A program made the position numbers and the translations under genes. Below are positions 35,063-42,626 of a stretch of DNA of 42,626 nucleotides, one piece after another. The notes beneath the pieces were generated by a model. The model searched no databases and was not told the origin of the DNA. It saw only the letters and a program-made list of their open reading frames with translations. This stretch comes from a virus (Duplodnaviria; Caudoviricetes): the IMG/VR virus record IMGVR_UViG_3300002301_000031, positions 1 to 42,626 of that record. One strand, 5' to 3'. Numbering within the stretch: position 1 is the stretch's first letter; each line of letters begins with the position of its first letter.

Positions 35063-35992
35063 ATGCTATCTAGGCTATTCGTAGTTGCAGCAGCAACGAT
35101 TATTGGTACAGCAGCTTATGCTGCTGAAATTACAGGAGCAGGCGCTACCTTCCCATTTCCAATCTATGCAAAGTGGGCCGATTCTTATAAGAAAGTTTCA
35201 GGCAATACTTTAAATTATCAATCAATTGGCAGTGGCGCAGGCATTAAGCAAATTGAAGCCAAGACAGTTACATTTGGCGCAACTGATATTCCAGTAAAAC
35301 CAGAAGACCTAGAAAAGAAAGGTCAAGTTCAGTTTCCAATGATTGTTGGCGGAATTGTACCAATTGTTAATATAAAAGAAGTAACGGATAATCAGTTAGT
35401 ATTGAATACTGATATCATTGCCAAAATCTATATGGAAAAGATTAAGAATTGGAATGATAAAGAAATTGCAGCACTTAATCCAACATTGAAACTTCCTGAT
35501 CTTCCAATTATCAAGGTTCGTCGTAGTGATGGTAGTGGAACAACTTGGAACTTTACAAGATTCTTATCAGAAGCAAATGCTGATTGGAAGAAAGATTATA
35601 ATTTTGGTCAAAGCATTGAATGGGCTGGCAGTGCAATCGGCGCAAAGGGCAATGATGGCGTAGCAAATAATGTTTCAGTTGCAAATGGTTCAATCGGTTA
35701 TGTTGAATATGCGTTTGCCAAGTCAAACAATCTTACAACCGCAAAGATGATTGGCAGCGATGGCAAGCCAGTTGCTCCTAGCTTGAAAGCATTTCAGTCT
35801 ACTTGGCCAATGGTTGCTACTTCTTATATCGTAATGTACAAGACACCTGATGACAAGACAGCTTCTAAGGATGCTATCAAGTTCTTTGAATATGCGCTTG
35901 CGCATGACAAGGATGCCGAAGAATTGGATTATGTACCCCTAACTGCTGCTCAAAAGAGCGATGTAAAAAAAGTTTGGGAAACTATAAAATAA
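35063..35992 (+). CDS. pstS: Phosphate ABC transporter periplasmic binding protein
   Basis: Signal peptide; GAGATFP.P.Y.KW, NYQSIGSGAG, FGATD, RSDGSGTT, GNDGVA, IGYVE. Confidence 0.95.
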   Translation: MLSRLFVVAAATIIGTAAYAAEITGAGATFPFPIYAKWADSYKKVSGNTLNYQSIGSGAGIKQIEAKTVTFGATDIPVKPEDLEKKGQVQFPMIVGGIVPIVNIKEVTDNQLVLNTDIIAKIYMEKIKNWNDKEIAALNPTLKLPDLPIIKVRRSDGSGTTWNFTRFLSEANADWKKDYNFGQSIEWAGSAIGAKGNDGVANNVSVANGSIGYVEYAFAKSNNLTTAKMIGSDGKPVAPSLKAFQSTWPMVATSYIVMYKTPDDKTASKDAIKFFEYALAHDKDAEELDYVPLTAAQKSDVKKVWETIK

Positions 35993-36027
35993 TTCTTGAC
36001 ATAATAGGTCAATAGATGTATAAAGAG

Positions 36028-36061
36028 AAGGTGAGAGGGAAAAACCCTTTCACCTTTTTTT
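36028..36061 (+). terminator. Intrinsic terminator after pstS
   Basis: AAGGTGAGAGGG/CCCTTTCACCTT stem plus T-run. Confidence 0.8.
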
Positions 36062-36087: not shown

Positions 36088-36117
36088 TTGACAAATATTT
36101 TTTATCGTGTATAAATA
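36088..36117 (+). promoter_or_regulatory. Promoter heading the tRNA region (sigma70 -35 plus overlapping TATAAATA late motif)
   Basis: TTGACA 36088-36093; TATAAATA 36110-36117. Confidence 0.75.
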
Positions 36118-36139
36118 GAATTACAAATTGAGAGCAACT

Positions 36140-36220
36140 ATGTCTAACACGCCTAAACACAATGATTATAACATTTGCCGCATGCCAGAAGGTTTCTGGA
36201 TTGAGGGGGCGTGTGCCTAA
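36140..36220 (+). CDS. Putative attenuator leader peptide MSNTPKHNDYNICRMPEGFWIEGACA (26 aa)
   Basis: First ATG after the promoter, GAGAG 5 nt upstream, ends 29 nt before a terminator; overlaps alternative stems. Confidence 0.7.
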   Translation: MSNTPKHNDYNICRMPEGFWIEGACA

Positions 36221-36248
36221 TGTGATCGCACATTAGAGTATGCACTTA

Positions 36249-36280
36249 GCCCCTGAAACGAAAGTTTCGGGGGTTTTTTT
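36249..36280 (+). terminator. Attenuator-type intrinsic terminator
   Basis: GCCCCTGAAAC-GAAA-GTTTCGGGGGT, 11 bp, with a 7-T tract. Confidence 0.88.
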
Positions 36281-36386
36281 ATTTCGGGATGTTGCTCCCC
36301 ACGCATAAGAGCAACCCTTGACTAGTACTGGCTCCAAATGGACGCAGGTGGTTTCAGCAAGGCATTGAAACAATGAAAGTTGTTTC

Positions 36387-36498
36387 TAAATGAGCATCAT
36401 AGCCAGTTGCAACTGGTCCAGTGGATGGGATAGGAGTCTTGTGACTCCAAAGACGGTTCGACTCCGTTAGGGACTGATCAACCCATGATGTTCTTTTA
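36387..36498 (+). ncRNA. Structured RNA 1 with T-arm mimic
   Basis: Closing stem 36387-36400/36485-36498 (13 of 14 pairs); internal hairpins; ACGG-TTCGACT-CCGT. Confidence 0.6.
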
Positions 36499-36518
36499 GA
36501 AGCAATGAAAGTTGTTTC

Positions 36519-36666
36519 GCTTATACAAGAGACTAATAGTGCGGAGTAATTAACCGAAACTATAAACAGATAGTCTGGTGAGAAGGTGCGTCAGGTCGCT
36601 ACGATTGTGGTGGACGGCAATCTGAGGTTGGGTTCGATTCCCATGGTTTGTGTATCTTGTATAAGC
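36519..36666 (+). ncRNA. Structured RNA 2 with T-arm mimic
   Basis: Perfect 12-bp closing stem GCTTATACAAGA/TCTTGTATAAGC; TGGG-TTCGATT-CCCA. Confidence 0.6.
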
Positions 36667-36681
36667 GCAACAACTTTTTAC

Positions 36682-36755
36682 ATCACCGTGGCGTAATGGT
36701 AGCGTAAGGGTCTCCAAAACCTTTGGTCTGGGTTCAAATCCTAGCGGTGGTGCCA
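36682..36755 (+). tRNA. tRNA-Trp(CCA)
   Basis: Cloverleaf; loop CT-CCA-AA; encoded CCA. Confidence 0.92.
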
Positions 36756-36832
36756 ATTATGTCAAAAAATTGACAGTTGACAAACTCTAAATCTGTGTTA
36801 TATTAGTAATATAAGCAGTTTAGGAGAAATTC

Positions 36833-37465
36833 ATGCGCAAGATTGCCTTATTTTCCCATCATCCACAGTGCTCACGCGACTGTGTAAATGGTATGATTTC
36901 CGCTCTCAGCGGCGCATATGATGTAGAGACTTTTCGGGTAGACGATGACTTTGGCGCTATCTTGGGTTCCGCTGATATCGTCGCCTTTCCTGGCGGTATC
37001 GGTGACAGCATGTCATTTGACTATCTGCTTGGCGACAAGGTAGAGATGATCCAAGACTTTGTTGCTAATGGCGGTAAGTATCTTGGCATCTGCATGGGCG
37101 CATACTGGGCTGGCAGCCACTATTTCAATCTGCTTGATGGTGTAGATGCTGTTCAGTATATCAAGCGTCCTACTGCCGATATTGCTCGTCCTTATGGCAC
37201 GGTCGCAGATGTTACATGGAACGGCAAGCGTGACTCTATGTACTTCTATGATGGCTGTGCATTGGTAGGCAACAAGCGTAAGTTTGAAACCGTTGCTGCC
37301 TATGCTAACGGCGATGCTATGGCTATCAAGCAAGGCAATGTAGGTATCATTGGTTGTCATCCTGAGAGCCAACAATACTGGTATGATACATGGCAGTATA
37401 TGCCAGATTACTGGCATGGCGGTCGTCATCATGCAATGTTGCGTGAGTTCGTAGATAAATTATAA
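36833..37465 (+). CDS. Class I glutamine amidotransferase-like (BPL_N-type) protein
   Basis: FPGG, GG.YLGICMGAY nucleophile elbow, GCHPE; TTGACA at 36777. Confidence 0.85.
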   Translation: MRKIALFSHHPQCSRDCVNGMISALSGAYDVETFRVDDDFGAILGSADIVAFPGGIGDSMSFDYLLGDKVEMIQDFVANGGKYLGICMGAYWAGSHYFNLLDGVDAVQYIKRPTADIARPYGTVADVTWNGKRDSMYFYDGCALVGNKRKFETVAAYANGDAMAIKQGNVGIIGCHPESQQYWYDTWQYMPDYWHGGRHHAMLREFVDKL

Positions 37466-37479
37466 TTGGATAGTAAATT

Positions 37480-38103
37480 ATGAAAATAGATAATAACTTT
37501 GTTTTTTTGTTGTTTACTCCTGGTGTGGGTGGAAATCATTTAACAAATTTATTATCTATTTCTTTAAATATTTTTGCAAATCTTCCAGACAATAAAGAAG
37601 ATATTATTAATAGCTATACAACACCAGAAGTAAATTTTAATAGACATAATTTTCGGAAAGAAAATTTTAAAAAAATAATATCAAATAATAAAAAACAAAA
37701 CGATATTATAGTATGTGGGCATTTTTCAGAATATCTATCTTTAGAAAATTTTCTTACAAAAATTATTAAAAATAAAAAATTTATATCCATAACTGAATTA
37801 GATGAAGAATCTATTGGAAAATTAAAAAACAGACTTAAGTTTATTGGAAATATTTACAACGTAATAGAAAACGAATATTATTTGCATGAACAAAGATTAA
37901 TATACAGTTCGCATAATTTGTCTAAATTATTAGATTGTAAAAAAGAAGATATCGTAGAAGTAAAATTAAATGATCTGTTGTCTGAAAATATTATTCCAGT
38001 TTTAAACAAAATAGGCAATAATTTGGGATACACTGAATTTAGTTGTTTAGAATTTTGTCAAGAACTTCATACTATTTGGTTAAAAAACAATAATATAATT
38101 TAA
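37480..38103 (+). CDS. AT-rich protein, P-loop/sulfotransferase-like N-terminus
   Basis: F.PG.GGNHL..LLS; function weakly inferred. Confidence 0.5.
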   Translation: MKIDNNFVFLLFTPGVGGNHLTNLLSISLNIFANLPDNKEDIINSYTTPEVNFNRHNFRKENFKKIISNNKKQNDIIVCGHFSEYLSLENFLTKIIKNKKFISITELDEESIGKLKNRLKFIGNIYNVIENEYYLHEQRLIYSSHNLSKLLDCKKEDIVEVKLNDLLSENIIPVLNKIGNNLGYTEFSCLEFCQELHTIWLKNNNII

Positions 38104-38107
38104 CTAT

Positions 38108-38185
38108 GGGGAAGTGTGCGCGGAATGGTTACGCCAAGGTCTGCAAAACCTTTTTATGTGGGTTCAAGTCCCATCTTCCCCTCCA
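38108..38185 (+). tRNA. tRNA-Cys(GCA)
   Basis: AAGGT-CTGCAAA-ACCTT; U73; CCA. Confidence 0.92.
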
Positions 38186-38193
38186 ACTTTTGT

Positions 38194-38269
38194 GCAAAGT
38201 TAGCAAATGTGGTCATTGCACTGGACTGAAAATCCAGCCAACTTGGTTCGATCCCAAGACTTTGCACCA
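38194..38269 (+). tRNA. tRNA-Phe(GAA)
   Basis: CTGGA-CTGAAAA-TCCAG; CCA. Confidence 0.9.
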
Positions 38270-38289
38270 TTTTTATTAAAGGAAATGCA

Positions 38290-38541
38290 ATGATAGAAGC
38301 AGCATTAGTATTTTTGTCAATGTTTGTGGTTGATATCTTTTATGCGATTTATCTTAAAAGCATTGAAAATAACAAACCATTACATGCATCATCAATGGCG
38401 ACTATCGTTTTCTTCATTGCAAGTATTGCAACGATTGGTTACGTAGATAATCACTGGTTATTAATTCCTGCGTGTTTAGGTGCGTTTGCAGGAACTTGGG
38501 TTGGTGTAAAATATAACATTAAAAAAGGAAAAAACAAGTGA
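38290..38541 (+). CDS. Small multi-pass membrane protein
   Basis: Three hydrophobic segments; GAFAGTWVG; AAGGA RBS. Confidence 0.75.
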   Translation: MIEAALVFLSMFVVDIFYAIYLKSIENNKPLHASSMATIVFFIASIATIGYVDNHWLLIPACLGAFAGTWVGVKYNIKKGKNK

Positions 38542-38779
38542 AACGGGACTGTATCTAGAAACAAAAGATGGACGCATCGTCAATATTACAGTTTATGTAA
38601 TGGGCGGTCTGCATACTTTAACAAAGACATACACCATATATTATGAAGAGGCAGTGGGCGGTTTTCCCGATTTACATAATTGGTGGTTTTTCAAAGAAGT
38701 AAAAGACGAACCTGATGGTCTATACTATGATAAACGAAGCTACTTTATTGAAATAAAAACAAAAGGCTCCATCTTATAA
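38538..38779 (+). pseudogene. Frame-disrupted ORF (would read MKTGLYLETKDGRIV...)
   Basis: GTGA-coupled start is out of frame with an 80-codon open frame from 38540 to TAA at 38779. Confidence 0.35.
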
Positions 38780-38839
38780 TGGCTATTATCCTTGACTGTC
38801 TATCAGGGGATAGGGGTTCGATTCCCCTTGGAGTCGCCA
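38765..38839 (+). tRNA. tRNA-Asp(GTC)
   Basis: CTTGA-CTGTCTA-TCAGG; G73; CCA. Confidence 0.92.
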
Positions 38840-38851
38840 ACACAATTTAAT

Positions 38852-38913
38852 GCTGGGGTTTGCATGGGTGCTTTAACTAACAACCATAGGGTTCGATTCC
38901 CTACCCCCGCTCA
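38852..38913 (+). ncRNA. Truncated tRNA-like element
   Basis: Acceptor-like stem (6 of 7 pairs) and perfect T-arm TAGGG-TTCGATT-CCCTA; no proper anticodon arm; ends TCA. Confidence 0.55.
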
Positions 38914-38921
38914 ATTATAAT

Positions 38922-38998
38922 CCGCCCATAGATAACGCTGGCTATATCACCACCCTTTCAAGGTGAAGTAACGGGATCGACACCCGTTGGGCGGACCA
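38922..38998 (+). tRNA. tRNA-Glu(TTC)
   Basis: CACC-CTTTCAA-GGTG; CCA. Confidence 0.9.
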
Positions 38999-39064
38999 AT
39001 AAACTTTTAGTTGACAATATTTTATAATATGGTACAGTTAAAGTTATGTGAAGGAGTAATACAC

Positions 39065-39586
39065 ATGACGTTAGAAGAGTTTGCTGTATTTTCTGAAATT
39101 GCAAAACCAATTTTAGAAGCGGCGCGAAATGATATTGATTATTATGCTGGTACTATCTATGAAGGTTTTTTAGAATTACCTAATACTGTTCGTGGAAGTA
39201 TTGGTGAAAATATTGTAAGTGCTGATATGGCAAGTCGCGGTCACATAATTAAAGATCGCACTAGCGCAGGTCATGATCGTATTATTGATGGCATTAAAAC
39301 TGAAATCAAACATGGCATCCAAGGCAAAGGCAATCCAGACAGTCATATTATTAATCATATAAGTGCTGACAAAGATTGGGATCGTTTAGTATTTTATGGC
39401 GTAAACCGTCCTCTAGAAAATATGCGACGGATTTGGTTTACCAAAGAAGATTTTTTAGCGAACATTAACAGCGGCATTTTTCGCAGACAACAAGGTGGCG
39501 CAGATTTAGAAAATGATGATTATATGTGTAGTAAAACTCCCTTATTGTTGAACCAACCATGGGTTCATGATATAAGTGAATGGTAA
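39065..39586 (+). CDS. PD-(D/E)XK restriction-like endonuclease
   Basis: GSIGE helix, HDRII, TEIK; own TTGACA (39011) and AAGGAG RBS. Confidence 0.65.
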   Translation: MTLEEFAVFSEIAKPILEAARNDIDYYAGTIYEGFLELPNTVRGSIGENIVSADMASRGHIIKDRTSAGHDRIIDGIKTEIKHGIQGKGNPDSHIINHISADKDWDRLVFYGVNRPLENMRRIWFTKEDFLANINSGIFRRQQGGADLENDDYMCSKTPLLLNQPWVHDISEW

Positions 39587-39589
39587 TAT

Positions 39590-39664
39590 TGGCGTGTAAC
39601 TCAGAGGTAGAGTACAGTCCTGATAAGACTGGAGTCGTTGGTTCAATTCCAACCATGCCAACCA
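39590..39664 (+). tRNA. tRNA-Ile(GAT)
   Basis: CAGTC-CTGATAA-GACTG; CCA. Confidence 0.93.
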
Positions 39665-39670
39665 ATTAAT

Positions 39671-39746
39671 ACCCAAGTAGCACAGCGGTAGTGGCAACGC
39701 TCTCATAAGGCGTGGGTCGTTGGTTCAAATCCAACCTTGGGTACCA
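39671..39746 (+). tRNA. tRNA with CAT anticodon (elongator Met or Ile2)
   Basis: ACGCT-CTCATAA-GGCGT; CCA; identity not resolvable by eye. Confidence 0.88.
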
Positions 39747-39751
39747 ATTAT

Positions 39752-39827
39752 TGGGGAATAGTTCAGTTGGTAGAACGCAACACTCTGAATGTTGATGTCC
39801 GAGGTTCGAGTCCTTGTTCCCCAACCA
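39752..39827 (+). tRNA. tRNA-Gln(CTG)
   Basis: CAACA-CTCTGAA-TGTTG; CCA. Confidence 0.92.
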
Positions 39828-39834
39828 AATTCGT

Positions 39835-39910
39835 GGACCGTTAACTCAGTTGGTAGAGTAGGGGACTCTTAATCCTTTTGTCGGGGGTTCAAATCCCTCA
39901 CGGTCTACCA
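39835..39910 (+). tRNA. tRNA-Lys(CTT)
   Basis: GGGGA-CTCTTAA-TCCTT; CCA. Confidence 0.92.
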
Positions 39911-39921
39911 TTAAATACAGT

Positions 39922-40380
39922 ATGAAGAAAATAGTTTTAATTTGTCTGCTATTAGCAGGTTGTAACTCTCTTGAACCACAAAGCATTGGCGTTGTAGGAA
40001 CAGGTTTATCTCATCATTTGAAAGAAAGATCAAGTCCGCCATATAATGAAACTAATAGTGGTTTGGGAGTAAGATTAAATCTTGACAACGATACTGCTAT
40101 TCAAGGTGGGTTTTTTGATAACAGTTATAACAAACAAAGCAATTATGCTATCATAGATTATTCACCATATAAGTTACTAAAACAAAATGATTGCGGTAAC
40201 ATGGATGTGGGTGGATTTTTAGGAGCAGCAACTGGATATAAAGCATACACAGTGCCAGTTGGCGGTATACAGGGCGCGATTCATTGTGGTGATTTTTATG
40301 TACGCACAAGAGTAACACCAGCACCAGTTGCAGGCGCAGTATTATCCGTTGAAGTAGGTTATACCGTTTTTAAATTTTAA
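39922..40380 (+). CDS. Lipoprotein-signal outer-membrane beta-barrel, PagP-like
   Basis: Lipobox LLAGC; SHH...YNETN.GLG, F.NSY; terminal F. Confidence 0.6.
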   Translation: MKKIVLICLLLAGCNSLEPQSIGVVGTGLSHHLKERSSPPYNETNSGLGVRLNLDNDTAIQGGFFDNSYNKQSNYAIIDYSPYKLLKQNDCGNMDVGGFLGAATGYKAYTVPVGGIQGAIHCGDFYVRTRVTPAPVAGAVLSVEVGYTVFKF

Positions 40381-40381
40381 T

Positions 40382-40456
40382 GTTCTCTTGGTGAAATGGA
40401 TATCACCGAAGTCTACGAAACTTCAGTTCCAAGTTCGAATCTTGGGGAGAACGCCA
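40382..40456 (+). tRNA. tRNA-Arg(ACG)
   Basis: GAAGT-CTACGAA-ACTTC; CCA. Confidence 0.92.
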
Positions 40457-40461
40457 ATTTG

Positions 40462-40623
40462 TTAAGGGCGACCTTGACCACGATATGCTTTAACAGAACG
40501 ACGAACGCTTTTATTTTTAGGGCGACTGGCTTTTGCATTACCAATACTAGTGCGTTTATTGACGCTGCTTTTCTTGAAAGTAACCTTTGCTGCGCCATTT
40601 GCGCCGCCTTTTGCTTTAGCCAT
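40462..40623 (-). CDS. 53-aa basic protein ending KAYRGQGRP
   Basis: Hand-translated; GGAG RBS and TAAATA upstream; YRGQG terminus recalled from small T4-like phage proteins. Confidence 0.8.
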   Translation of the reverse strand: MAKAKGGANGAAKVTFKKSSVNKRTSIGNAKASRPKNKSVRRSVKAYRGQGRP

Positions 40624-40676
40624 AATTGATTCTCCCTAAAGAAATATTTAGTGTTTTTTATATCAATAAGTATCGT

Positions 40677-42236
40677 ATGCGTGTAAAATTCATAGTATCT
40701 CCTGATTATAATTTCAGAGGCAGAATTGTTAATCCAGCTTATTGGTTTCTAAGATCATATTACAAATTCAGTAGTAAAAATTATGACAAGATTACATGGC
40801 TAGATGCGCATTTTCAATTTTTAACTGATAACGATGCAATGATTAATACTATCATTGAAGAGAAAGTTGATGTATTATGCATGAGTATCTATATTTGGAA
40901 TCGTGAACAATATCTTACAATCGCAAAAAAAGTTAAAGAATTAAATCCAAATATTATAATAATTGCAGGCGGTCCTGAATTAGATGCTTATAAAAATCCA
41001 GATTTTTGGAATGAAAATTCTCAATTAGATTATGTAGTTTATGGCGATGGAGAATTTGCTTTTAAAGTTTTACTTGATCATTTAGTAGATGGTACATCAT
41101 TAGAAGATGCTGTAAACATTGTAACTAAAGAAAAAATATACCCATTTAAAATTTTTACCGATAAAGAATTTTCCAAGATAAGTCCATGGCTAGAAATGGA
41201 AGATGATATCATGCGAGTGATAAAAGAAGCCAATGGCGAAACATTATTGTTTAATTGGGAAATGAGCAGAGGATGTCCATATTCTTGCAGTTTCTGCGAT
41301 TGGAGTAGCGGATTACATAATAAAGTTAAACGCCGAAAGGGAAATTGGCGCGAAGAAATAGATTTATTTGCAAAAATAAATGTCAATGTTGGAATTATTG
41401 ATGCAAATTGGGGGCAGTTTCCAGAAGATATTGAAATTCATCAATATGCTGTTGATAAATTAGGTGATAAACTATGGACTCAAAATTTTAGTAAACTTAA
41501 TAAAAAAACAGTTTATGAAATGATAAAGATTCAAGGGCGTGGAAGAGAAAGTACATTTAAAACAAATATATCATTGCAAGATATTAATCCAGAAGTTTTA
41601 AAAAACATTGATAGACCAGAAGTTCCATGGGAAGAACATAGAAAATTTATAATTGAATTATTAGAAAATAATCCAAATATACAAGCAACCCCAGAATTAA
41701 TAGTTGGTTTACCAGGACAAACACCAGATTCTTTTATGAATACGATAACTGAATTGCATGATATCGGAGTAAGTCGCATTACTCATCATGGATGGGTTTT
41801 GTTAACAAATAGTCCAGCAAATAATATTGAATACCAAGAAAAACATAAAATTAAAATAGAAAATTTAATTTGGTTAGCAAATACTATATTTCCAGATAGA
41901 CAATCAGCATTGGTATCTGCAAACAATAAAGATAATAAAACTTTTATAGCAAAAACAATAGTTGGAACATATTCATGTGATCTAGCAGATATTTTAACTA
42001 TGCATAGTTTTGCTGGATTATATAACAGCATAATGCATTTCAATCCAAAGTTAAATCCGTTAAAAATAATTAACAGAAATAGACAACGAATAATTGACAT
42101 GAGTAATCAACATGCAGAAATCATGAATAATGATAAAATATTTGGCATTGAAAATTATACTGGTTTCGTAGATTATAAAAATCTATGGGAATATTATGAT
42201 AAAAATAACTTTAATAGAATGTTAAAAGATATATAA
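40677..42236 (+). CDS. Cobalamin-binding radical SAM protein
   Basis: S.YIWN...A...K...P...I..GGP B12 domain, GDGE, RGCPYSCSFC, DANWG, ELIVGLPG.T; start moved to MRVKF. Confidence 0.9.
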   Translation: MRVKFIVSPDYNFRGRIVNPAYWFLRSYYKFSSKNYDKITWLDAHFQFLTDNDAMINTIIEEKVDVLCMSIYIWNREQYLTIAKKVKELNPNIIIIAGGPELDAYKNPDFWNENSQLDYVVYGDGEFAFKVLLDHLVDGTSLEDAVNIVTKEKIYPFKIFTDKEFSKISPWLEMEDDIMRVIKEANGETLLFNWEMSRGCPYSCSFCDWSSGLHNKVKRRKGNWREEIDLFAKINVNVGIIDANWGQFPEDIEIHQYAVDKLGDKLWTQNFSKLNKKTVYEMIKIQGRGRESTFKTNISLQDINPEVLKNIDRPEVPWEEHRKFIIELLENNPNIQATPELIVGLPGQTPDSFMNTITELHDIGVSRITHHGWVLLTNSPANNIEYQEKHKIKIENLIWLANTIFPDRQSALVSANNKDNKTFIAKTIVGTYSCDLADILTMHSFAGLYNSIMHFNPKLNPLKIINRNRQRIIDMSNQHAEIMNNDKIFGIENYTGFVDYKNLWEYYDKNNFNRMLKDI

Positions 42237-42243
42237 TAATGAT

Positions 42244-42317
42244 GCGGCTATGATGTAGAGGTAACCTGCTTCGTTGCCAACGAAGATTCGCCAGTTCGAT
42301 TCTGGCTAGCCGCTCCA
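42244..42317 (+). tRNA. tRNA-Gly(GCC)
   Basis: CTTCG-TTGCCAA-CGAAG; U73; CCA. Confidence 0.92.
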
Positions 42318-42365
42318 ATTTTTTTCATTGACAATCTGCAAAATCATGTTATATTAATAATATGA

Positions 42366-42440
42366 GCCGTCTAAGTGTTAAAGGTTGCACACGAGTTTGT
42401 GGCACTCGTAGAACTGGATCGATACCAGTAGACGGTACCA
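42366..42440 (+). tRNA. tRNA-His(GTG), alphaproteobacterial type
   Basis: CGAGT-TTGTGGC-ACTCG; G1:U72, A73, A at -1; TTGACA at 42328. Confidence 0.9.
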
Positions 42441-42487
42441 AAAATAATGCTTGACAAAAGAATATAATATGCTATTATAACAATATT

Positions 42488-42575
42488 GGGACGGCTGCTC
42501 AGACGGCGGATGGGCGGCGGGCTGTAAACCCGTTACATAGAAACGGAGTAGGTTCGAATCCTACCCGTCCCACCA
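42488..42575 (+). tRNA. tRNA-Tyr(GTA)
   Basis: GCGGG-CTGTAAA-CCCGT; long variable arm; CCA; TTGACA at 42451. Confidence 0.92.
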
Positions 42576-42583
42576 AAATTTAT

Positions 42584-42626
42584 TGCGGGGTAGAGAAGTG
42601 GTCATCTCGCCAGTCTCATAAACTGG
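42584..42626 (+). tRNA. tRNA-Met(CAT), partial at the window end
   Basis: TGCGGGG 5' end; CCAGT-CTCATAA-ACTGG. Confidence 0.8.

Follow-up and report, generated by a model that had tools for sequence, protein, structure and literature searches.

Why phages carry tRNA genes is a long-standing question that has been argued mostly from gene content; codon supply, replacement of a degraded host pool and escape from anticodon nucleases have all been proposed. The locus described here raises a more specific one: does a short leader at the head of a phage tRNA array let the state of translation decide whether RNA polymerase enters the array? The window, that is, the whole stretch of 42,626 nucleotides that was analysed, is a 42.6-kb fragment of a jumbo myophage that encodes tail sheath and tube proteins. 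The terminase shares 52% identity with those of PA5oct and Paride and 51% with that of Atu_ph07, and by this measure the phage falls in the same group as the Rak2-like jumbo phages. Copies of the leader occur in related ~340-kb jumbo phages, among them a relative with a complete 338-kb record (G001). The PstS protein encoded upstream is ~50% identical to many alphaproteobacterial proteins, a weak hint of an alphaproteobacterial host. The leader sits between a strong terminator 3' of pstS and the tRNA array, of which the window holds 13 named tRNA genes and one undetermined call. The elements from pstS to the end of the leader are as follows.

35063..35992, + strand: phosphate-binding protein (PstS-like; PF12849, phrog_5385), the gene upstream of the leader
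36023..36061, + strand: intrinsic terminator after pstS, a 17-pair stem with a T run
36088..36117, + strand: predicted hybrid promoter, TTGACA-16 nt-TATAAATA, the single pattern match in the window
36130..36134, + strand: weak ribosome-binding site GAGAG
36140..36220, + strand: leader ORF of 26 codons with 17 amino-acid types, 16 of them within codons 2-20; frame open in 20/20 copies
36147..36154, + strand: segment 1 (partner 36207-36214), 119/120 cells paired in 15 sequences, single-side changes only
36185..36199, + strand: small 6-bp hairpin within the ORF, 100% paired, loop different in the divergent clade
36204..36216, + strand: segment 2, 5' strand of the antiterminator, codons 22-26; pair 36205:36254 is G-C, G-U or A-U
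36217..36236, + strand: hairpin over the stop codon, in both states; pair 36219:36234 is A-U in 8 and G-C in 7 of 15 sequences
36242..36255, + strand: segment 3, common to antiterminator and terminator, by position check and pairing in the alignment
36249..36280, + strand: intrinsic terminator, 11-bp stem, GAAA loop and T7, 100% paired in 15 sequences, no double change

The terminator at 36023..36061 would shield the leader from upstream transcription. The architecture that a preliminary description of this DNA had laid out was recovered exactly in place: the 26-codon ORF (36140-36220), stem 1:2 (36147-54 with 36207-14), the antiterminator 2:3 (36205-10 with 36249-54 and 36213-16 with 36242-45), the 8-bp hairpin over the stop (36217-36) and the terminator (36249-59 with 36264-74, T7 at 36274-80). 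Its promoter at 36088-36117 is also present and is of a hybrid type, with a sigma-70 -35 box joined to a T4-type late box TATAAATA. The joined pattern, TTGACA-16-TATAAATA, has one match in the window against 0.01 expected and is absent from the output of a sigma-70 scan. A late sigma factor gene is encoded by G001 (E 1.2e-79). The box TATAAATA shows no genome-wide enrichment in G001 (18 matches, against 37 control matches), so the late-promoter call is based on where the box lies and on the presence of the late sigma gene; the late-type box suggests importance late in infection. The ribosome-binding site is as weak as had been anticipated, reading GAGAG in 17 of the 20 copies and GAGAA in three. 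The small hairpin at 36185..36199 is a possible pause element. A further ORF of 24 codons in a different frame (36162) was discarded, as 6/16 main-family copies and the L010 clade lack its start.

Computed energies were -25.4 kcal/mol for the antiterminator, -19.2 for the terminator, -10.6 for stem 1:2 and -38.8 for stem 1:2, hairpin and terminator together. The leader as a whole folds with z = -5.2, a value equalled by none of 200 shuffles. The antiterminator gain of 7.6 kcal/mol was reached by 31/300 dinucleotide shuffles and by one of 64 unrelated viral terminators that carry the segment-3 word, among the matches listed. The antiterminator alone is thus modestly above chance; since its energy is unconvincing alone, the case rests on conservation.

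The close set comprised at least 20 distinct full elements (the window included), drawn from 110 redundant records, together with four partial hits. The leader was present in 13/13 loci found with the gene at 36833 (one partial) and in 10/41 loci found with PstS, most of the others being more distant phages or ending early. Loose patterns for segments 2 and 3 plus the terminator returned, among the matches listed, only the close family and unrelated terminators, and 64 of the latter served as the controls mentioned above. A scan of bacterial genomes, with at least 120 loci as profile-search targets, gave no leader hit; blastn of the leader region against cultured phages gave only tRNA-Trp and AT-rich chance stretches; and no Rfam family matched the leader at gathering score, His_leader (E 1.9) and trpB (E 5.4) being at chance level only.

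All 20 distinct copies keep the start codon, an open frame of 26-28 codons, the stems and the promoter pattern, the last of which formed part of the pattern that defined them. Indels within the ORF are of 3 nt, with the exception of a 1-nt insertion at the stop that shifts the stop two codons on; among close copies, the promoter spacer and the 5' UTR carry one-base indels. A structure alignment was made from 15 of the 20 close copies. Across these sequences pairing reaches 98.6% in the antiterminator state, where double changes occur at two pairs: 36205:36254 in the outer helix (G-C, G-U, A-U) and 36219:36234 in the hairpin (A-U or G-C). The terminated state is 99.8% paired, and its one double change is the same hairpin pair. 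There is therefore one double change in the outer helix of 2:3 and none in 1:2 or the terminator; covariation is thin because most pairs are invariant and the sequences are close kin. The preliminary description had proposed a search of related phages for an upstream ORF with covarying stems; the ORF and the stems are kept, and the covariation is thin, with no double change in 1:2 or 3:4.

The switch logic was followed by a masking scan in which RNA was hidden up to 9 or 12 bases past the A-site codon and the rest was folded to the terminator loop, with E. coli thrL, trpL, leuL and pheL as controls. In all four E. coli leaders the drop in antiterminator signal lay 0-3 codons from the last regulatory codon. 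In the window the signal exceeded 0.8 as far as codon 18 or 19, after which it dropped to ~0.1, with a later drift of up to 0.5 that reflects other pairings. The drop occurred at the same place (F19/F20) in 20/20 phage copies and was noisier in three L010-type copies; a ribosome past F19/W20 already masks segment 2. The preliminary description had assigned the leader the logic of trp/his-type attenuators, in which a ribosome at the stop masks segment 2 and one stalled early frees 2:3. The masking folds do match those of E. coli attenuators, but the switch point lies at codon 18-19 and not at the stop. The ORF is kept open, the terminator lies downstream, and the antiterminator overlaps the 5' arm of this 3' terminator and can be masked late in the ORF.

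Folding of both states under constraints, which had been proposed as a check, gave mutually exclusive 2:3 and 3:4, but stem 1:2 loses to 2:3 in the naked RNA of 18/20 copies. At equilibrium 1:2 wins in the window and L045 alone, so that its complementarity is kept while it prevails as protector in only 2/20 copies; the antiterminator is favoured in naked RNA (0.79-1.0) in the 18 others and in the 12 distant loci described below. An untranslated leader may consequently read through. When the full-length RNA of the window leader is folded, the terminator prevails wherever the ribosome stands, and the switch must therefore be kinetic or co-transcriptional.

The leader encodes many different amino acids. 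The whole peptide has 17 types in 26 codons, a weak excess reached by 289/9,709 protein windows and 1,063/5,000 DNA shuffles; codons 2-20, a window chosen post hoc, have 16 types in 19 codons, reached by 14/9,961 protein windows and 130/5,000 shuffles. Most amino acids occur once and there is no codon run; Ala, Leu, Gln, Ser and Val are missing from the sensing window. Counted up to the Trp codon, 19/20 copies share one set of 15 amino acids, and none of 9,925 20-mers from the window proteins contains all 15. The L010 clade is identical at 11/27 positions and has a reordered middle, and it still supplies the same 15; one of 10,177 13-mers supplies what its middle supplies. Replacements among the 16 main-family copies fall mostly at duplicated amino acids or past the switch point. 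Across lineages most pairs of peptides share 3-11 identities and the composition is kept. The leader is therefore likely to be a sampler of many amino acids, kept as a set and not as a sequence.

An out-of-sample bait was provided by motif X, a conserved RNA downstream of the terminator that is unrelated to the leader sequence and was used alone. The motif X scan gave 116 matches in 89 contexts, which were filtered for the core word or a tRNA nearby; 23 passed (10 close family, 12 distant and one chance) and the other 66 were dropped. The 12 distant loci represent ~3-4 lineages and are not 12 independent cases. Each has an upstream ORF of 24-35 codons with a ribosome-binding site and a stop 24-30 nt before a terminator, and in each the predicted switch falls within the last 6-8 codons. 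All 12 leaders contain 17-20 amino-acid types, including all of Cys, His and Trp (null 2-5%), and their stems differ in sequence from those of the window.

As a background, 144 terminators from 25 regions were put through a similar test; 13 had a leader-like ORF and four had the switch, namely two known copies, one in GAP32 without the late box and gp469 of Atu_ph07. The GAP32 candidate lies away from the array head and, lacking the late box, was set aside although it passes the switch test. Atu_ph07 gp469, annotated as hypothetical, is a 42-codon leader at the head of the tRNA array (NC_042013.1, 339118-339246, - strand; L646). In Phosso, a 54-codon leader with a GTG start that heads the main tRNA array was found by eye (PV764938.1, from 419754, + strand; L648); the detector reads ATG only and missed it, so cases can escape. 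In both phages the main tRNA array is thus headed by the same arrangement of promoter, leader, antiterminator and terminator, and the amino-acid diversity of these longer leaders is not significant (p 0.16 and 0.20, respectively). Paride, BF and GAP32 have no leader within 700 nt before the first tRNA. The detector found no second attenuator in the fetched G001 regions (~130 of 338 kb), nor was one found near the tRNAs of G002, G004 and G005.

Past the terminator, the following elements would be reached by read-through.

36284..36366, + strand: motif X, conserved two-hairpin RNA, the first element past the terminator, in 18/18 relative regions
36376..36506, + strand: small-RNA cassette 1, long terminal stem and T-loop-like hairpin, duplex -22.0 kcal/mol
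36510..36676, + strand: small-RNA cassette 2, long terminal stem, duplex -28.4 kcal/mol, common to G007
36682..36755, + strand: tRNA-Trp(CCA), first tRNA of the array, by tRNA prediction
36777..36804, + strand: internal sigma-70-type promoter directly 3' of tRNA-Trp, 11/12 consensus
38108..42575, + strand: twelve more tRNAs (Cys, Phe, Asp, Glu, Ile, Met, Gln, Lys, Arg, Gly, His, Tyr)

Motif X (~80 nt) has 10 of its 22 pairs changed on both sides in 17 sequences and matches no Rfam family. It was not found in G002, G004, G005 or Atu_ph07, nor by a whole-record search in Phosso, where there is a weak hit (E 0.08) at the expected place behind the leader. It always lies between the terminator and the first tRNA. 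The put-type RNAs are antitermination RNAs; motif X recalls them in place and shape and, by this analogy, could carry polymerase through later terminators. Cassette 1 has 72-78% identical copies in L025 and L220, and ARAGORN calls part of it as an undetermined tRNA. The terminal stems of the two cassettes (~19 bp in 36376-36506 and ~22 bp in 36510-36676) resemble RNase III substrates, and relatives carry different cassette sets at the same place.

The first tRNA is tRNA-Trp in 16/17 close regions. The twelve further tRNAs are interspersed with ORFs and promoters, and the array continues past the window end, where a tRNA gene is cut off (42577-42626). Several inserts were observed in this part of the genomes. 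In nine of 18 relatives (G001, L010, L009, L025, L376, L377, L208, L220 and L213), a promoter, a ~90-aa ORF and a GC hairpin with a T run stand between motif X and tRNA-Trp. L517 and L004 have an AT-rich ORF of ~230 codons before tRNA-Trp that looks homing endonuclease-like by eye, and a 52-codon basic ORF lies between the terminator and motif X in L045, L005, L518 and L597, which belong to the close family and a distant lineage. The window array itself contains very AT-rich inserted ORFs at 37480-38103 and 40626-42236, the second encoding a B12-binding radical SAM protein. The last array block of L503 (G001), L517 (G006) and L518 (G007) includes a tRNA-Thr with anticodon AGT, which is unusual in bacteria. 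At L739:7343-7438 (- strand; G008) there is a tRNA-Gly(GCC)-like gene with a ~25-nt hairpin insertion in the anticodon loop that ARAGORN missed.

How much of this output depends on the leader is set by the other promoters. In the window family no promoter above 8/12 precedes motif X and the two cassettes; in the window, a 9/12 site (36638) lies inside cassette 2, just 5' of tRNA-Trp. A promoter pattern after tRNA-Trp occurs in 12/17 relative regions, some from the same phage. In 8/12 distant loci a sigma-70 site of at least 9/12 lies between the terminator and motif X, and Phosso has, by eye, two such sites after its terminator. On the + strand from 36281 to 40505 there is no terminator-like site. 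In the window, the unit without another evident promoter would therefore be motif X, the two cassettes and tRNA-Trp, with the other tRNAs partly gated at most. These results bear out the earlier view that the output consists of tRNA-like RNAs and tRNAs and not of biosynthetic genes. They also agree with its caution that only part of the array may depend on the leader, the internal promoters that it named at 36777, 39011, 42328 and 42451 being confirmed as consensus matches. With downstream promoters conserved, the attenuator is best read as a conditional boost over constitutive or early promoters, and its share of tRNA output may be modest.

Taking these observations together, the element is probably a translation-coupled attenuator with a many-codon input and a small-RNA and tRNA output, as judged from conservation and folding models. 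The leader ORF overlaps mutually exclusive antiterminator and terminator stems ahead of the array, and slow decoding of any of ~15 amino acids would let RNA polymerase run on. According to the folds, with the A site at codons 2-18/19 segment 2 would be free and 2:3 could form before the 3' arm of the terminator is made; a ribosome past codon 19/20 would cover segment 2, and the terminator would form. The model supposes that the leader is translated and that a single codon per amino acid slows the ribosome when the charged tRNA is scarce or cleaved. Read-through would then add motif X, the two cassettes, tRNA-Trp and further tRNAs on top of the internal-promoter output, the last being within reach because no strong terminator follows. 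That the phage would thereby obtain tRNA on demand we infer from sequence and modelling.

Whether the leader matches the tRNAs it precedes is a separate matter. Tentatively, the leader may act as a feedback sensor matched to the tRNAs that the phage itself carries, with one codon for each amino acid that the array can resupply, serving as an on-demand counter-defence; loss of tRNA through starvation, host anticodon nucleases or heavy late translation would then switch the array on. G001 encodes tRNAs for Ala, Leu, Gln, Ser, Val, Arg, Met and Thr outside the array, so that all five amino acids missing from the sensing window have out-of-array tRNAs (p ~0.004, post hoc). The L597 leader lacks Phe and Ala, and the L597 array, a fragment that contains an interrupted tRNA-Gly, lacks tRNA-Phe and tRNA-Ala; the absence of tRNA-Phe was predicted from the leader before inspection, and the prediction held. 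Its sister L565, also a fragment, has both the Phe codon and tRNA-Phe. Against such matching, the G001 array lacks tRNA-Phe, -His, -Tyr and -Pro, all encoded in the leader, and Leu, Gln and Ser tRNAs are present in several arrays. The correspondence between leader and array is suggestive only.

The same elements can be read in other ways. The leader could be a general gauge of translation or coupling that responds to ribosome supply, initiation, drugs or dormancy, its single codons being too weak individually; we regard this as unlikely. It would suit the weak ribosome-binding site and the naked-RNA folds of 18/20 copies and the 12 distant loci, in which failed initiation would also give read-through, as well as the contrast between the repeated codons of the four E. 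coli leaders and the mostly single amino acids here. But a gauge of this kind has no need for Cys, His and Trp plus 15-20 types in every lineage, and the parallel absence of Phe and Ala codons and tRNAs in L597, with the Phe codon and tRNA-Phe both in L565, speaks against it. The recurrence of the overlap between the last codons and the 5' arm of the terminator in lineages without shared stem sequence argues, in turn, against a constitutive gene for a small peptide or small RNA that ends in a terminator of its own, in which the pairing would be incidental and the tRNAs would come from downstream promoters. The weak shuffle test (31/300), the conserved downstream promoters and the lack of such a leader at the head of the Paride, BF and GAP32 arrays would all fit a constitutive gene. 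What is kept across lineages is composition and not peptide sequence, however, and the window family has no promoter above 8/12 ahead of motif X and the cassettes; we consider a constitutive gene improbable.

More restricted inputs fare less well. An attenuator specific for Trp and serving tRNA-Trp would explain the one invariant Trp codon of all 20 copies, the Trp that each of the 12 distant leaders carries 2-4 codons ahead of its predicted boundary, and the first place of tRNA-Trp in 16/17 close regions with a promoter following. It is nonetheless very improbable: W20 of the window family falls on the predicted boundary or beyond it, inside a conserved hairpin; the other 14 amino acids are kept too; and the arrays of distant lineages and cultured phages begin with a tRNA for Ser, Asn, Ile, Lys, Ala or Gly. 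TnaC and ErmCL exemplify control by an arrest peptide that responds to a metabolite or drug. Several residues of the phage peptide are invariant in the close family, which would fit an arrest peptide of that type, but its middle has a different order in the L010 clade and shows no relation from one lineage to another, and the invariant Pro-Glu-x-Phe-Trp is explained by the RNA hairpin, which leaves this reading with hardly any credence.

If the many-codon attenuator holds, tRNA genes switched on by slow decoding would show that phages measure the host tRNA state, and the codon list of the leader would tell which tRNAs the phage watches. Attenuation would then also be known with an all-codon input and with tRNA as its output. 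The layout is present in two cultured phages, one of which grows on the non-pathogenic Sinorhizobium meliloti, and this opens the question to direct experiment; the element could also be used as a small reporter of tRNA damage.

Among known systems, the E. coli leaders thrL, trpL, leuL and pheL share with the phage element a promoter, a short ORF, 1:2, 2:3 and 3:4 stems and an intrinsic terminator. The distance from stop to terminator arm (28 nt in the window leader, 23-47 nt in the E. coli controls) and the behaviour in the masking scan are alike as well. Unlike these leaders, the phage leader has no single-codon run and ~15 amino acids appear once each; it is phage-encoded, carries a late-type promoter box and has a 1:2 stem that is weak relative to 2:3 in most copies; and its output is non-coding RNAs and tRNAs instead of enzymes. 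Given the lack of a codon run, the RNAs and tRNAs downstream and the lack of an Rfam leader match, the phage element is not of the amino-acid operon family. The multivalent attenuators of ilvGMEDA and thr read two or three amino acids through repeated codons and have a protein output, and the pheST/pheM attenuator governs an aminoacyl-tRNA synthetase. The phage leader resembles them in that several amino acids would be sensed or the output belongs to the translation apparatus, whereas it differs from ilvGMEDA and thr in that it would read 15-20 amino acids and in having an output that is not protein. Some T-box riboswitches precede tRNA operons in Firmicutes; they resemble the proposed phage switch in terminator/antiterminator control by tRNA charging with tRNA genes as a possible output, but work by direct binding of tRNA to RNA, read one amino acid and have no translated leader. 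Against Rfam the phage leader hits no T-box, whether at the gathering threshold or with E values allowed up to 10, and it is not a T-box; the literature search returned nothing on T-box control of tRNA operons.

The mechanism of leader-peptide transcription attenuators is treated in the relevant part of PMC3082878. The preliminary description knew of no account of such control in phages, and in the literature searched, in part through the opening lines of abstracts, no attenuator came up that controls tRNA genes, be it in a phage or in any tRNA operon. In the main texts of PMC6102473, PMC11242549 and PMC7824862, the strings 'attenuat' and 'leader' do not occur. A further comparison is the tRNA array of the Rak2-like jumbo phage Atu_ph07 (PMC6102473), whose gp469 is such a leader.
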